Of a DNA stretch of 7,348 nt, positions 2,039-7,348 are shown piece by piece. Position numbers and translations under genes: made by a program. Position 1 is the stretch's first letter, and every line of letters begins with the position of its first letter. The notes beneath the pieces are model-generated. The model was not told the DNA's origin. It saw only the letters and a list, made by a program, of their open reading frames with translations, and did not search any database. The stretch comes from a virus: IMG/VR virus record IMGVR_UViG_3300007141_000001, positions 1 through 7,348 of that record; one strand, 5' to 3'.

Positions 2039-2395
2039 ATGCGTCGAAAGTGGAACATTTATAAACGATTGTCTACCCAATCGTCAACAGGTGTTTTCGT
2101 GAGTACCCAAGAAAGGCTAATCAATGCCCTTTTCGAAAAATTTCCCCAACTATCCGAAACCGCCATTGCAAGAAAATGCGGTTTATCAATCGCAAGATTT
2201 AGTAACTACAAACTTGGAAAAAGAAAGATGGATATAGATGCTGTAATTGGCTGTGCACAAGTACTAGGTTGGAACGTACAAGCTACCGTTACCTCTCATG
2301 AAATCGAAATCGCAGAAACAAACCGCGTCAAAAACCTATGGAACATGATTGCCTCTAGCATAAAAGACAAAACCCAAATCCCGATTCACGCCTAA
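2039..2395 (+). CDS. HTH (XRE/cI-like) transcriptional repressor candidate
   Basis: Helix-turn-helix-like LSETAIARKCGLSIARFSNYKLGKRKM. It is the only plus-strand gene and is divergent from rep, as with rstR/cI-type regulators of temperate inoviruses. The ATG at 2039 has no SD, so the GTG at 2099 (AGG 9 nt upstream) is an alternative start. Confidence 0.6.
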   Translation: MRRKWNIYKRLSTQSSTGVFVSTQERLINALFEKFPQLSETAIARKCGLSIARFSNYKLGKRKMDIDAVIGCAQVLGWNVQATVTSHEIEIAETNRVKNLWNMIASSIKDKTQIPIHA

Positions 2396-2400
2396 CCCCC

Positions 2401-2440
2401 GGAGTAGTTACTCAACAGTAGGTTTCGTAACTCCACCTCA
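2401..2440. repeat. Conserved stem-loop motif, copy 1 (GTTACTCAAC-N5-GTTTCGTAAC-N5-CTCA)
   Basis: Core at 2407-2431. The stem is agttac/gtaact, with a symmetric TC/TC internal loop, AAC/GTT pairs and apical agtag. It starts 6 nt after the repressor stop. Confidence 0.7.
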
Positions 2441-2590
2441 TCGCTTCGTGCTTGCCCGTTGCCGACGATGAAGCGCGCCGACAACCCGGCAAGCCCTCAA
2501 ATCAACACCCCAAAGCCGGAAACAAAGAGCAAAGCCCTGCATTTGCGCTTTTGTTCGCTCTAGACCGCTCACAAAAGCGCCCATAGCCCA

Positions 2591-2629
2591 GCGGTGTTAC
2601 TCAACGAAAAGTTTCGTAACACCGCCTCA
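2591..2629. repeat. Conserved stem-loop motif, copy 2
   Basis: Core at 2596-2620. A perfect 10-bp stem gcggtgttac/gtaacaccgc, the same TC/TC internal loop and AAC/GTT pairs, apical gaaaa. It lies 189 bp from copy 1 in the same orientation. Confidence 0.7.
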
Positions 2630-2939
2630 CTGGCTACAACAAACCTCCCTGCAGACCCTCACCAAAAGCAAAAGCTGCACAGTTGAGAATTAGTTGCAAT
2701 AAAAACGCTCGCTAGCCGTCGTTTTTCCCTTCGCAGCTACCTACCTACTCGCCAAGGGATAGAAATCGATTCTAGGTAAGTTTTAGGCCCCTTCTGAGCC
2801 TCTTTCCAACCTTGGTAACTCCCTGAAGCCCGAACCCCTCAAGAGCAGCTCTCCCGAGAATCCAACCTTGCTGAGAAATTGATGCCCTACCGCGCGGCGA
2901 TTCCGTGGGACCCTGACCCACGAAATCGCCAAAAGCGAA

Positions 2940-2989
2940 GGGTTGGGTTGGGCTGGGGGCTTGGGCGGAATTTGGGCCATAGTATGGGG
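2940..2989 (+). other. G-quadruplex-forming run on the plus strand
   Basis: GGGttGGGttGGGctGGGGGcttGGGcGGaatttGGGccatagtatGGGG. The first four tracts have 2-nt loops. It is followed by C6-TA-C6-T5 at 3003-3021. Confidence 0.6.
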
Positions 2990-3081
2990 TCATGCTAAGC
3001 AACCCCCCTACCCCCCTTTTTCGCGCCACCTGTTTTGCAAGGATTTACGCCCTAATCAAGGAATGAATATTAACGGTTTCT

Positions 3082-3098
3082 TAACGTATTTCACACGG
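3082..3098. repeat. Left arm of a 17-bp perfect inverted repeat (taacgtatttcacacgg)
   Basis: It is the exact reverse complement of 3584-3600. Confidence 0.9.
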
Positions 3099-3256
3099 CA
3101 GAGACTTTATCTCACAAATCCGGTGGACACATCTGCGAAGCTAGTTACGGTTGCAGTAACGGTGTGCCACGTTCTGCAATTCGTGCTCCATTGCGCCTGT
3201 CCTCTCGACGGGCAACGGTACGTACCTTACTCATTTCGTTTGGGTGTTCTCCTCGC

Positions 3257-3392
3257 ATTCCCTTTGTAGTCTCAGCCGGGGACTTCGCCTCACGCACCGC
3301 CTTAACGTAGAACTTGTCTTGAACACCGTGCCAAAAATTCCCTTGTAGTCTCAGCCGGGGACTTCGCCTCACGCACCGCCTTAACGTAGAAC
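3257..3392. repeat. Tandem direct repeat: 57-nt (3257-3313) and 56-nt (3337-3392) copies separated by 23 nt
   Basis: Both copies read attccctt(t)gtagtctcagccggggacttcgcctcacgcaccgccttaacgtagaac. They are identical except for one T indel. The flanks after each copy are weakly similar (gaacacc / aacacc), suggesting an ~80-bp duplicated unit. Confidence 0.9.
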
Positions 3393-3546
3393 CTCTAACA
3401 CCTTACCCCTACTCTTTTCTTGCTCCAGTGACCCTAGGGAGCCCCCTAGCGGTTTGATGGTCCTGTACCTGCTAGTCAATGGCGAACCACTCCAAAGACC
3501 CTACTGCTAACCACCTCTTACACCTCCTTAAAATCGCCTTTTTTTC

Positions 3547-3576
3547 AGGGTATGCACATTTCTGTACACTTGTCAA
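3547..3576 (-). promoter_or_regulatory. Candidate sigma70-type promoter reading leftward into the ORF-free region
   Basis: Minus strand: TTGACA (3576-3571), 18 nt, TACCCT (3552-3547). About 20 nt downstream lies a perfect SD, TAAGGAGGTG (3530-3521). Confidence 0.35.
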
Positions 3577-3583
3577 CCCCCGA

Positions 3584-3600
3584 CCGTGTGAAATACGTTA
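3584..3600. repeat. Right arm of a 17-bp perfect inverted repeat (ccgtgtgaaatacgtta)
   Basis: It is the exact reverse complement of 3082-3098. The arms enclose 485 nt that include the tandem repeats. Confidence 0.9.
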
Positions 3601-3640
3601 TGCCTTTTAGCAAAAACCGTGCCAACTTCAAAAGCGGCCC

Positions 3641-3665
3641 AAAATGCACAAGCCTTGCGCATTTT
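3641..3665. terminator. A-tract/T-tract flanked hairpin, bidirectional terminator-like
   Basis: aaaatgcacaa-gcc-ttgcgcatttt. The single mismatch is A.C on the plus strand and becomes G.U on the minus strand. Confidence 0.3.
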
Positions 3666-3889
3666 CTAATCCGCATTTGAGCTGGCAAAAATCAACATCC
3701 AAAGCAAGAGCAAAAGCCCGCTGCTTTAAGACCTCCTCCCACTGAAGCTGGGGTTAGATAATTGCTTAGCACATCTTCCCGCTGAAAAGCGGTCTTCAGC
3801 GCGCAAGACGGCAGCATTAGCTAGCAAGTTATCCGCAACGCGCCAAGCGTTCATAACATCGGAACGTTTTAACATTCAAGCATTTAGCC

Positions 3890-3908
3890 TCATCCGCTTA
3901 GCGGATGA
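3890..3908. other. 8-bp hairpin tcatccgc-tta-gcggatga
   Basis: Perfect complementarity read directly. Part of the hairpin cluster at 3641-3974. Confidence 0.6.
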
Positions 3909-3944
3909 TGGAAGATTCATGCACGCGGAACGAAGAGCGCCACC

Positions 3945-3964
3945 GTAGGGGGCCAGCCCCCTAC
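3945..3964. other. GC-rich 8-bp hairpin gtaggggg-ccag-ccccctac
   Basis: Perfect stem, enclosed by a second helix cgcgg (3923-3927) / ccgcg (3969-3973). No U-tract on either strand. Confidence 0.6.
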
Positions 3965-4000
3965 ACCCCCGCGGATCGATCTTTCAGTATCCAAATTCAA

Positions 4001-4028
4001 AGGCGCATTAATTTTTATTATCTAAACA
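4001..4028 (+). other. Degenerate dif-like (XerC/XerD) site, candidate attP
   Basis: AGGCGCATTAA-TTTTTA-TTATCTAAACA compared with the remembered proteobacterial dif consensus DBBBCSBATAA-TRTAYA-TTATGTHAANT. The XerD arm matches 9/11, the centre 4/6 and the XerC arm 8/11. No integrase is encoded. Confidence 0.3.
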
Positions 4029-4056
4029 TTATCTAGGATATTAACTTTTATTATCT
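4013..4056. repeat. AT-rich iteron block: ATTATCT x3 (4017, 4028, 4050) and ttttattatct x2 (4013-4023, 4046-4056)
   Basis: Spacings of 11 and 22 bp (helical phasing). It lies immediately downstream of the zot stop. Candidate origin or Rep/host-factor binding region. Confidence 0.5.
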
Positions 4057-4059
4057 CTT

Positions 4060-5127
4060 TTAGTTTAAACGTGGTCCCAAACTAGATACTCTACGTGGAT
4101 GTTCACTACTGCTACGATTATTCCGTTCTTCTCCATAAGGGTTATACACAGGGCCACGACTTGCCAATGTTCTGCATTGGGCTAGTCCAATCTCATACTT
4201 CGTTCCTTGCTCTGTAATGCATGTGCAACTGTGATCTTTCCAGTTACCACTACCATCTAAGCCCTGCCCAGAAGACATACAGAATAATTCAGGATCTGAA
4301 GCAACTGACCGATCATCAAAAACCGGAGCCGTCCAAGGTGCCGCTGGAATCCTGGGTAAATGATCTTCTATATAGTCTGCTGTGGTTTCCCATCTCTTTT
4401 CTTTTTCTTCTTTTTTCTTGGCCGCATAATCAAATGCAACATCTGTAGGCATTATCTTCTGTTGCGTTTCGATTTTCTCATCTTTACTCATACCACTACG
4501 AACCTGCCAAATCACATAAGCCAGTAATAACCCTGCAATAGCAAATAACATCATTGCGCGTTTAGCTCTAGAAGAGATTGTTCTCTTTACTGTATGAATC
4601 TCTGCCGATTTATACAGTCCGTAACACTCTTTTGGATAAACCCACGTTTCATGATCCTCACAGGCTAATGCGCGATCACTCCGCACATTATCTATAACCC
4701 GGCTACGTCTATAAACAATGGCCGATTCTTTACCATTTTCTCTAACCAAATGTTCATGCAATCCGACCAGTGCTCTGATATTGGCATGGATTAAAGCGGG
4801 CGATTGAGTTATTAGAATTAATCTAATTCCCTCATGCCGGATAGTTTCCATTGCTTGGATATAAGCCGGTACCGCTCCCGAAGCTGCCCGGAAAAACCGT
4901 TGCGCTTCGTCCACTACCAAAATTGCGCCAGATGGCAACTCTTCCCATTTAGTAGGATCTGGAAAATCCAGAACACCCTCAATTGCGATGTCTGCTAAGT
5001 TAGATACAAATACCTGCTCATTTGATGCAATTGCCTGCTTGATATACCACACTGCCCGCAGTGTCTTGCCGTTGCCAGGCACCCCAGTCAGTAGGGTAAT
5101 CGAGGCCGTTTTAGCAATCGCGCTCAT
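4060..5127 (-). CDS. zot: Zot-like / pI-like morphogenesis ATPase
   Basis: N-terminal Walker A GVPGNGKT, Walker B ILVVDEAQ, a central TM (AMMLFAIAGLLLAYVIWQV) and a Cys-containing periplasmic C-terminal domain. The position after the pVI-like gene is canonical. Confidence 0.85.
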   Translation of the reverse strand: MSAIAKTASITLLTGVPGNGKTLRAVWYIKQAIASNEQVFVSNLADIAIEGVLDFPDPTKWEELPSGAILVVDEAQRFFRAASGAVPAYIQAMETIRHEGIRLILITQSPALIHANIRALVGLHEHLVRENGKESAIVYRRSRVIDNVRSDRALACEDHETWVYPKECYGLYKSAEIHTVKRTISSRAKRAMMLFAIAGLLLAYVIWQVRSGMSKDEKIETQQKIMPTDVAFDYAAKKKEEKEKRWETTADYIEDHLPRIPAAPWTAPVFDDRSVASDPELFCMSSGQGLDGSGNWKDHSCTCITEQGTKYEIGLAQCRTLASRGPVYNPYGEERNNRSSSEHPRRVSSLGPRLN

Positions 5128-6960: not shown

Positions 6961-7042
6961 CCCAACCATGGGAAACAATCACCGCTGCACATACCCACCA
7001 CATCAGCACCAACAAACCATAAAGTTCTGCAAAACCATTCAT
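6953..7042 (-). CDS. 29-aa hydrophobic micro-protein (pVII/pIX-like candidate); not in the ORF track
   Basis: Hand translation gives MNGFAELYGLLVLMWWVCAAVIVSHGWDE*. Its stop overlaps the pIII-like start cluster (GATGAATGAAATG), suggesting translational coupling. No clear SD. Confidence 0.35.
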   Translation of the reverse strand: MNGFAELYGLLVLMWWVCAAVIVSHGWDE

Positions 7043-7174
7043 CTTTATTTATTCTTATCTTGCTGTGATCTGCTCTCATCGGGACGCTATCGCTTGCGAC
7101 TGCCCCCGTCCCTTGCCAAGCTGCGGGACAAGAGCAGTGCTGCGCTCTTAGCGCCCGAATCTAGGTATATAGAA

Positions 7175-7215
7175 GTAATTAGATAAGTAATTGGTTCAAT
7201 TACTTATCTAATTAC
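7175..7215. other. Perfect 19-bp stem / 3-nt loop hairpin (candidate packaging signal or complementary-strand origin)
   Basis: gtaattagataagtaattg-gtt-caattacttatctaattac, checked base by base. The arms carry TTATCTAA, also present in the 4013-4056 iteron block. Confidence 0.5.
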
Positions 7216-7231
7216 CCCAAGACCGCGCGCT

Positions 7232-7266
7232 GTAATAAAGGGAGTTTATAAAACTCCCTTTATTAC
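7232..7266 (-). terminator. 16-bp stem hairpin spanning the circular junction, 6 nt downstream of the coat gene stop; intrinsic-terminator-like
   Basis: gtaataaagggagttt-ata-aaactccctttattac. The inner GGGAG/CTCCC core is followed by TTTATTA on both strands. A strong terminator after gene VIII is typical of Ff-type phages. Confidence 0.6.
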
Positions 7267-7348
7267 GCTTGCTCACCGAGGTTTGAGCAAATTAGCTGCC
7301 CGAATGGCCCATAACACCACGGCAAAGGCAATTACCAGCCCGATTACT
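7250..7348. repeat. Terminal direct repeat, copy 2 (identical to 1-99)
   Basis: Same 99 nt as the window start. It re-reads the 3' end of the coat gene and half of the terminator hairpin. Confidence 0.95.

Follow-up and report, generated by a model that had tools for sequence, protein, structure and literature searches.

Results

Genome organisation and the interval between zot and the repressor gene

The virus contig IMGVR_UViG_3300007141_000001 of IMG/VR, which at its full length of 7,348 nt is referred to here as the window, is the complete circular genome of an inovirus. Its terminal 99 nt (1-99 and 7250-7348) are identical and represent an assembly overlap, and the true genome size is therefore 7,249 nt. 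Between the zot gene and a repressor-like gene of this genome lies an interval without credible open reading frames (ORFs), hereafter the gap, which is the subject of this analysis. Judged by alignment with its single close relative, the gap is a mosaic of constrained islands in fast-evolving variable filler. Its limits are exact, extending from the repressor stop at 2395 (plus strand) to the zot stop at 4060 (minus strand), such that the gap occupies 2396-4059, a length of 1,664 nt or 23.0% of the 7,249-nt genome.

The structural and replication genes are all on the window minus strand, which is therefore the phage (+) strand. Minus-strand genes encode a g3-like protein (6978-5512), a g6-like DUF2523 protein (5508-5203), Zot/pI (5127-4060), ORF90 (1950-1678), a PF23343 rolling-circle Rep (1769-963), an SSB-like protein (890-573), a 63-amino acid protein and the coat protein (254-24). 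Only the helix-turn-helix (HTH) repressor-like gene (2039-2395) is on the plus strand, opposite to the other genes.

Searches with blastn using the gap or the whole genome found no matches in GenBank phages or PLSDB plasmids. The window Zot is 37% identical to the Zot proteins of Xanthomonas phages Cf1c and XacF1. A zot search identified one close relative, the IMG/VR contig L001 (7,286 nt; zot 85% identical at the amino acid level), in which the contig ends likewise overlap by 99 nt and the genes are arranged as in the window, zot being separated from a minus-strand repressor by 1,590 nt without genes. The comparative evidence presented here therefore consists of two genomes only, the window and L001, both of them metagenomic. 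Other relatives, found through Zot or Rep among GTDB genomes and in a set of 5.8 billion proteins, have amino acid identities of 69% or below and come from Xanthomonas, Stenotrophomonas, Lysobacter, Luteimonas and Xylella. Results of the Rep search agreed with those of the zot search, with one relative at 66% (P0123) outside the compared loci; two metagenome scans detected no further relative, and DNA-pattern scans of IMG/VR returned L001 alone, plus unrelated matches. The further relatives have G+C contents of 57-65%, with the exception of a Xylella prophage region (L039, ~45%), and the window and L001 are at 45-46%. Most of these relatives are compact, with the interval filled by genes, an exception being L030, in which zot is followed by ~566 nt of non-coding DNA. 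In the zot-repressor interval, relatives encode on the repressor strand a membrane ('chloride-channel-like') protein of ~140 amino acids and a DUF3653 protein. The same zot-repressor gene arrangement has been described in the literature for phiLf, and in XacF1 the interval is tiled by ORF9-ORF12. On the loci compared, the low-G+C lineage has acquired its long non-coding interval as a derived trait.

Coding potential, composition and order

The longest stop-free run in the gap is 128 codons, compared with 118 +/- 24 in shuffled gap sequences. Read-through of TGA, TAG or TAA, one at a time, gave no gap ORF in common with L001, no ORF is kept in frame or extent between the two gaps, and the ten longest gap ORFs had no matches in Pfam or PHROG. 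Searches of the window and L001 by tblastn and by profile hidden Markov models (HMMs) of the relatives' membrane-protein and DUF3653 genes gave only E>0.2 and no remnant, and the absence of any remnant of these gene families leads us to reject a decayed gene as the explanation. A preliminary description of the window, made from its sequence, had noted an ORF-free stretch of 1,664 nt making up about 23% of the genome while allowing that it might be a decayed protein-coding gene. The length, the fraction and the boundaries are all accurate and no credible ORF appeared under any code tested; the decayed gene is ruled out by the empty Pfam and PHROG searches, the tblastn and HMM values, the lack of a shared frame in L001 and the absence of ORFs under alternative codes.

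The same description had called the gap G+C-rich relative to coding DNA, C/A-rich on its plus strand and highly ordered. The first is correct if modest, at 50.7% G+C against 45.1% in the rest of the genome, and L001 is likewise shifted (48.9% against 43.6% elsewhere). An excess of C over G on the plus strand is present, but is a property of the whole genome and not of the gap. As to order, at least eight hairpins in the gap significantly exceed shuffled sequences in stability under DNA parameters, and there are discrete repeats, but unusually stable 50-nt windows are no denser in the gap than in the coding part (mean z -0.50 and -0.52, respectively; Mann-Whitney p=0.63). With hairpin density at the level of the genome, the gap is highly ordered in its specific elements and not in bulk. 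The Rfam 15 cmscan search that had been suggested found no real family at E<=1 (with GOLLD, ROOL, 6S, group I/II introns and ribozymes included). A match to MIR848 was spurious, with 32.5 bits against a gathering score of 90, and came from a generic long hairpin (3607-3702, minus strand) that is specific to the window and mostly deleted in L001. A tRNA/tmRNA search found none, and scans for sigma-70 promoters and intrinsic terminators remained at chance level.

Conservation between the window and L001

Coding DNA of the window and L001 is 75.9% identical and 4-fold degenerate sites are 55.7% identical. In the gap alignment, 54.5% of columns are identical and 328 columns are gapped, and since this identity is close to the neutral value the gap evolves neutrally on average. 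However, ~310 columns (~19% of those aligned) fall in islands that are 87-100% identical, above any gene, at 3957-3917, 3554-3506, 3222-3132 (within a wider block, 3235-3100), 3047-2993 and 2499-2453. At least six helices contain compensatory pairs relative to L001. For window 2530-2895, no counterpart could be recognised in L001. The repressors of the window (2039-2395) and L001 (382-669) are unrelated (BLASTP E=0.74), and the two loci share no more than a few final codons and the neighbouring TTAGGCGTGAATCGGG. The unrelated repressors imply an exchange of the immunity module at this end of the interval, and probable hetero-immunity between the two phages.

Elements A and B and the most conserved block

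Element B (2964-3047, minus strand) contains GGGGGGTAGGGGGG (3003-3016) followed by TAGCATGACCCC, and has the form G6TAG6...TAGCATGACCCC...GCCC. It aligns with an element of ~55 nt that directly follows the homologous PF23343 rep gene in four relatives (L002, L003, L037 and L038), where it reads TAGCTTGAC and carries CTTG, the recognition sequence of superfamily-I Reps (bioRxiv 10.1101/2023.12.30.573655). This adjacency to rep, together with CTTG in the relatives, makes element B the best candidate in the gap for the plus-strand origin, as a putative Rep recognition element and the best candidate nick site. Judged by its position in the relatives, element B has apparently been relocated to the gap in this lineage, away from the rep-ssb junction.

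The most conserved block of the gap (3100-3235, minus strand) is ~90% or more identical over ~130 nt and contains two invariant hairpins, at 3189-3217 and 3147-3184 (z -3.5 and -2.9), and a weaker third. The invariant hairpins are located 60-190 nt upstream of element B, an arrangement that recalls the filamentous phages f1, M13 and fd (Ff), in which minus- and plus-strand origins are adjacent. The block is a candidate complementary-strand initiation signal or RNA core. An intergenic hairpin, ACCGTCTCA-CCGTCGAGAGGACAGG-CGAGACGGT, was also observed in 17 tailed-phage contigs (L009-L013, L015, L016, L018-L027; for example L016 3530-3600, minus strand). Its inner 18 nt are those of the window hairpin at 3189-3217, and its outer stem differs in sequence yet is complementary. 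About 45 nt past it these contigs have GTTGACA...CATACCCTAAA, which resembles window 3547-3581; beyond the hairpin, extended similarity between these contigs and the window is not significant.

Element A (3917-3976, minus strand) consists of a hairpin, GTAGGGGGC-TGG-CCCCCTAC, followed by GGTGGCGCTCTTCGTTCCGCGTGCATGAATC, and is 90% identical to L001. Its hairpin core, GGGGGTGTAGGGGGC-loop-GCCCCCTACGG at ~3942-3967, is also present in L003, L005 and L006, and in L003 and L005 the element is positioned between the membrane-protein gene and the DUF3653/repressor genes. Element A further occurs, at ~90% identity, downstream of zot in each of the two adjacent Xylella fastidiosa filamentous prophages of L039. 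The low G+C content of L039 (44.9%), together with this shared element, hints at a Xylella-like or other low-G+C Xanthomonadales host.

The 519-nt module and its upstream motif

A module of 519 nt (3082-3600, minus strand) is closed by 17-nt inverted-repeat arms that can pair in a 17-bp long-range helix, the 5' arm, TAACGTATTTCACACGG, being at 3584-3600 and the 3' arm at 3082-3098 (both minus strand). The arms are 100% complementary, are 485 nt apart and have no third copy in the genome. L001 has arms at the same positions, in which ACGTATTTCA/TGAAATACGT have become ACGAATTTCA/TGAAATTCGT and the outer TA...TA has become AT...AT, giving a closing helix with two or three compensatory pairs (one by automatic counting), one U-G wobble and two bulges. 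The two-sequence consensus fold of the module has a z of -5.6 against column-shuffled alignments, and contains 13 compensatory pairs where column shuffles give 7.2 +/- 2.2, with 1% of shuffles reaching 13. The folds of the single sequences are unexceptional (z -1.0 to -1.7). On the opposite strand the consensus fold differs while its statistics are similar, and the two strand folds share only 25 pairs, which are those of the closing helix, the 3453-3431 hairpin and the tip of the 3217-3189 hairpin. These shared pairs make the closing helix and several local hairpins credible as real structures; the internal long-range fold is a tentative prediction. The fold of the window sequence is more stable on the phage (+) strand (-166.7 against -139.8 kcal/mol), where G-U/G-T pairs are tolerated. 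A profile search with the module against all fetched loci gave no matches, and no further copies of the 17-nt arm were found that would support its use as a repressor operator.

Directly upstream of the 5' arm is a sigma-54-type -24/-12 motif, TGGCACGGTTTTTGCT (3609-3624, minus strand), whose putative transcription start, at ~3597, is among the first bases of the arm. The sequence TTGGCACGGTTTTTGCT (3625-3609, minus strand) matches every defined position of the TGGCAC-N5-TTGCW consensus, with GG at -24 and GC at -12; no other position in the genome does so, a match arises in 10 of 200 shuffles, and L001 retains the motif as TGGCATGATTCTTGCT / TTGGCATGATTCTTGCT. The 50-100 nt upstream of the motif, where an activator site would be expected, are mostly deleted in L001. 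Neither the terminator scan nor reading of the sequence revealed a terminator after the 3' arm. In an unrelated IMG/VR contig (L032, 6700-9400), TGGCAY-N5-TTGCW motifs occur eight times in 2.5 kb, counting both strands, several of them preceded by a repeated TGTTAGTCGCTAGGA box, and this looks like a phage region densely set with sigma-54-type promoters, or a repeat family.

Within the module, the island at 3506-3554 (minus strand) is 90% identical to L001 and contains TAAGGAGGTG (3521-3530, minus strand), a Shine-Dalgarno-like sequence, perfect over 10 nt, that L001 has kept; the reading frame that follows it is not conserved (12 codons versus 34). On the plus strand of the module are two direct repeats of 53 nt (3261-3313 and 3340-3392, together 3261-3392), 98% identical and with a period of 79 nt. 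L001 has a single diverged copy, from which it follows that the duplication is recent and that this part of the module tolerates recent insertion. A similarity of the 53-nt repeats to element A was considered and is not significant.

Other hairpins and repeats of the gap

Closest to zot are AT-rich iterons (4007-4056, plus strand), with TTATTATCT at 4015-4023 and 4048-4056 inside 17-nt direct repeats (4007-4023 and 4040-4056) and a variant, CATTATCTAG, between them; L001 keeps three TTATTATCT-like copies. Hairpin H2 (3891-3907, minus strand; DNA-fold z -4.5) reads CATCCGC/GCGGATG in the window and CGGCCAC/GTGGCCG in L001, with three compensatory pairs. Three compensatory pairs are also found in the hairpin at 3799-3844 (minus strand), the stability of which is ordinary (z -0.08), and in that at 3431-3453 (minus strand), which is predicted on both strands (z -3.2). 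The helices at 3327-3321 / 3249-3243 and at 3306-3269 each have two. A hairpin of 13-14 bp at 2897-2929 (minus strand; z -6.0) has one compensatory change and one change from wobble to Watson-Crick pairing. The conserved element at 2443-2526 (minus strand) contains a 17-bp hairpin (2450-2494; z -3.9) with two compensatory pairs, and is present in two copies in L001. A repeated hairpin with the stem ...GTTAC/GTAAC... and the loop TCAAC-N-GTTTC occurs at 2403-2437, a copy that is absent from L001, and at 2591-2625 (z -4.7), and the outer stems of these two copies differ in sequence while each is still complementary.

The second intergenic region

The genome has a second intergenic region of 294 nt between the coat and g3 genes (6979-7249 and 1-23), with three conserved hairpins, some of them strongly compensated. 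One, of 15 bp, follows immediately after the coat stop; another is an AT-rich, perfect 22-bp hairpin (~7165-7215; RNA-fold z -7.2) for which L001 has a very different sequence that is still palindromic; and the third, GTCCC-GCAGCTTGGCAA-GGGAC, is invariant and has CTTG in its loop.

Discussion

There is in our estimation an even chance that the gap is an expanded, composite inovirus origin/regulatory intergenic region. Inovirus genomes are normally almost wholly coding. On this reading the low-G+C lineage would have lost the accessory genes for the membrane 'chloride-channel-like' and DUF3653 proteins, filler would have replaced them, and replication elements would have been gathered into one interval, as in the Ff intergenic region. 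Discrete cis-acting elements would act on the single-stranded viral (+) strand, which is the window minus strand, and would also serve as double-stranded binding sites, with fast-evolving filler between. The hairpin of element A may be a clade-wide element downstream of zot, element B may be the recognition or nick region for the PF23343 rolling-circle Rep, and the invariant hairpins of the 3100-3235 block, just upstream of element B, may form a complementary-strand initiation signal, around which the 17-bp long-range helix would fold ~0.5 kb of viral strand into a closed domain. We infer these specific roles in origin function and priming, as well as action as DNA rather than as RNA, from the observed absence of genes, conservation of islands, compensatory changes and linkage of element B to rep in the relatives. 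The composite region is supported by the like gene-free layout of L001, by compensation within the hairpins and the closing helix, by islands of 87-100% identity, by the clade-wide occurrence of elements A and B, by the traceless absence of the genes with which relatives fill the interval, and by the tolerance of G-U/G-T pairs and the more stable fold on the phage (+) strand.

Several observations weigh against a composite origin/regulatory region. In related Xanthomonas phages the origin and packaging signal together occupy ~120 nt with four stem-loops (bioRxiv 10.1101/2023.12.30.573655), and such obligatory functions would leave the 1.66 kb of the gap and ~10 conserved helices unexplained. 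Element B has CATG where the relatives have CTTG. The coat-g3 region, with CTTG in the loop of its invariant hairpin, could hold the origin, the packaging signal, a terminator or the true nick site. The Xanthomonas packaging-signal consensus GGX(A/-)CCG(C/T)G within a hairpin stem is absent from the gap and from L001, and the single match to it in the genome is within the g6 coding region. Finally, the closed 519-nt module with its sigma-54 motif is explained by no standard element, and the exact placement of a consensus sigma-54 motif at the 5' arm would be more natural for an RNA than for an element acting as DNA. It is the sufficiency of ~120 nt in relatives, the existence of the second intergenic region and the position of the module outside standard elements that keep our estimate for this reading from rising above an even chance.

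Of the alternatives the one that survives best, which we nevertheless regard as fairly unlikely, is that the sigma-54-type motif at 3624-3609 is a promoter from which the module (3600 to 3082, minus strand) is transcribed as a new, large and structured non-coding RNA. The ends of this RNA would be paired in the stabilising 17-bp helix, with the conserved blocks as its core and the variable parts as peripheral stems. The main argument for such an RNA is that the predicted start falls on the first bases of the 5' arm, downstream of a perfect -24/-12 match (TTGGCACGGTTTTTGCT) that is unique in the genome and kept in L001. The co-variation of the closing helix, the consensus fold (z -5.6, with 13 compensatory pairs against 7.2 +/- 2.2) and the conservation of the 3100-3235 block above every gene are in agreement with this. 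However, the single-sequence folds are unexceptional, the two strands fold differently with similar support and have just 25 pairs in common, the internal 79-nt duplication has been tolerated recently, and L001 has a deletion of most of the sequence ahead of the motif in which an activator would bind. There is also no Rfam match, and no terminator past the 3' arm. Given that only two sequences are available, a structured RNA of ~0.5 kb is possible but unproven. In a broader form, which we consider doubtful to a similar degree, the 3082-3600 module would belong to an undescribed class of large structured nucleic-acid element of filamentous phages, be it a paired-end non-coding RNA under sigma-54 control or a folded viral-strand domain, with a highly conserved core at 3100-3235 that functions beyond origin and packaging, for example in host manipulation or carrier-state control.

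It is improbable, in our assessment, that the gap is mostly non-functional filler left after accessory-gene loss, with a few terminators or operators, in which the apparent structure results from over-fitting to two sequences. Such filler would account for a gap identity (54.5%) equal to that of neutral sites (55.7%), for the 328 gapped columns and the lack of an L001 counterpart to 2530-2895, and for a hairpin density no higher than the genome background; filamentous virions grow longer with genome size and tolerate extra DNA, as the Ff cloning vectors do. It would not account for ~310 columns in islands far above both neutral and coding identity, for several compensatory changes within the same helices, for the conservation of elements A and B in distant relatives at 57-65% G+C, or for the retention of a 1,590-nt gap in L001 despite saturated synonymous divergence.

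These comparisons bear on what the preliminary description had proposed for the gap as a whole. Its argument that retention implies function is borne out in part of the gap, where the islands have been under stronger purifying selection than the genes, and its reservation that the region might be hypervariable junk describes the near-neutral, indel-rich filler but not the conserved islands and compensated helices. The argument from genome size has little force, considering that filamentous virions lengthen with their genomes. A single structured element of 1.2-1.7 kb is contradicted by the restriction of islands to ~19% of columns, by an overall identity at the neutral level and by the lack of an L001 counterpart to 2530-2895; what remains of that idea is the 17-bp long-range helix around 519 nt and the other compensated helices, the global fold not being robust. 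The proposed division into a normal origin region on the right and ~1.2 kb without a role also has to be abandoned, as the Rep-linked element B is situated at 2964-3047, in the supposedly role-less part.

We consider it very unlikely that the 17-nt arms form no helix and instead serve in recombination or transposition, whether as the ends of a non-autonomous miniature inverted-repeat transposable element (MITE) inserted into the intergenic region or as the borders of an inverton flipped by a host recombinase, and that they co-vary since both must match one enzyme. In favour of such sites, perfect repeats 485 nt apart with no third genomic copy have the geometry typical of invertons and MITEs, the L001 arms change in concert and TA dinucleotides flank a 15-nt core in the window. 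Against them, the 9 phage ORFs include no recombinase or transposase, and searches of viral, plasmid, phage and metagenome sequences and of the fetched loci yielded no other copy of the arms or interior. A passive MITE would not be expected to have an interior that is co-linear in both phages and holds compensated hairpins together with the best-conserved block of the gap. The imperfections of the L001 arms preserve pairing (with a U-G pair and bulges) rather than identity, and the change of the flanking TA to AT on both sides in L001 suits pairing better than a target-site duplication.

Among known systems, the gap most resembles in function, by analogy, the Ff intergenic region and single-strand initiation (ssi) signals. 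The Ff region contains the packaging hairpin A, the minus-strand origin hairpins B and C and the plus-strand origin hairpins D and E. Like it, the gap is an ORF-free segment after the morphogenesis genes with a series of viral-strand hairpins, and it has a Rep-linked element beside hairpins that could prime the complementary strand. In contrast, the Ff region is 508 nt long and the gap 1,664 nt (1,590 nt in L001), there is no sequence similarity, and the 17-bp helix spanning 485 nt, the sigma-54-type motif, the divergent repressor gene at one end and the large variable spacers go beyond Ff. Single-strand initiation signals are elements of ~100-300 nt in which two to three hairpins are conserved on the strand delivered to the cell as ssDNA, and the 3100-3235 block has the form of such signals, which include the G4/phiX-type complementary-strand origins, plasmid ssi sites and Frpo, the ssDNA promoter of the F plasmid. 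The origin/packaging-signal modules of the phiLf/Cf type belong to the same zot clade (37% identity to Cf1c/XacF1) and have stem-loops with CTTG for a superfamily-I Rep, but they are compact and inside gII, and their Rep is not detectably related to that of the window; a similarity to the phiLf origin was sought, and that origin does not align with the gap. The large RNAs GOLLD and ROOL, and 6S RNA, share with the gap hundreds of ORF-free nucleotides on a mobile element, paired termini and a conserved core with a variable periphery, but cmscan detects none of them in the gap at E<=1, their host lineage differs and the gap is known from sequence alone. Invertons of the fimS type and MITEs likewise have short perfect inverted repeats around a few hundred non-coding base pairs, unlike the gap in that here there is neither a recombinase nor any further copy, and the interior islands are strongly constrained.

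A lineage with 22-23% of its genome non-coding, with islands in that fraction conserved above its proteins and with a co-varying long-range helix, suggests that replication and regulatory signals may be reorganised upon the loss of accessory genes. The sequence at 3082-3600 is a concrete candidate for a structured element, RNA or DNA, that would be new and phage-borne. Should element B prove to be the nick region, the origin would thereby be defined for PF23343 Reps, a family widespread among Xanthomonadales inoviruses, which include Xylella and Xanthomonas prophages.

A dif-like phage attachment site (attP) of the CTXphi/phiLf/XacF1 type was not found in the gap, where the best matches to four dif sequences are 16-18/28 and inside the range of shuffles. 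The AT-rich repeats were considered as such a site and rejected as not significant; they behave as TTATTATCT iterons. Both Xylella filamentous prophages of L039 have a dif-like sequence, TTCATAATTGTATATG, ~100 nt downstream of zot (14395-14440 and ~17030-17075), a sequence lacking from the window, and these two inverted prophages have a tyrosine recombinase gene between them. A motif of the GCTTTTGCT(C/T)TTG type, in phage-strand orientation, occurs three times in the gap (2520-2540, 2663-2675 and 3701-3721) and also in L001 (~6320 and ~7116), and is possibly a protein-binding site. Outside the gap, the divergent promoter region between the repressor and ORF90 has a near-perfect 17-bp palindrome (CCGGTTTTTCTCTGTTC...GGCAGAGAAGAGCCGG, z -5.0) at 1982-2030, which is probably an operator or regulatory hairpin of the immunity switch.

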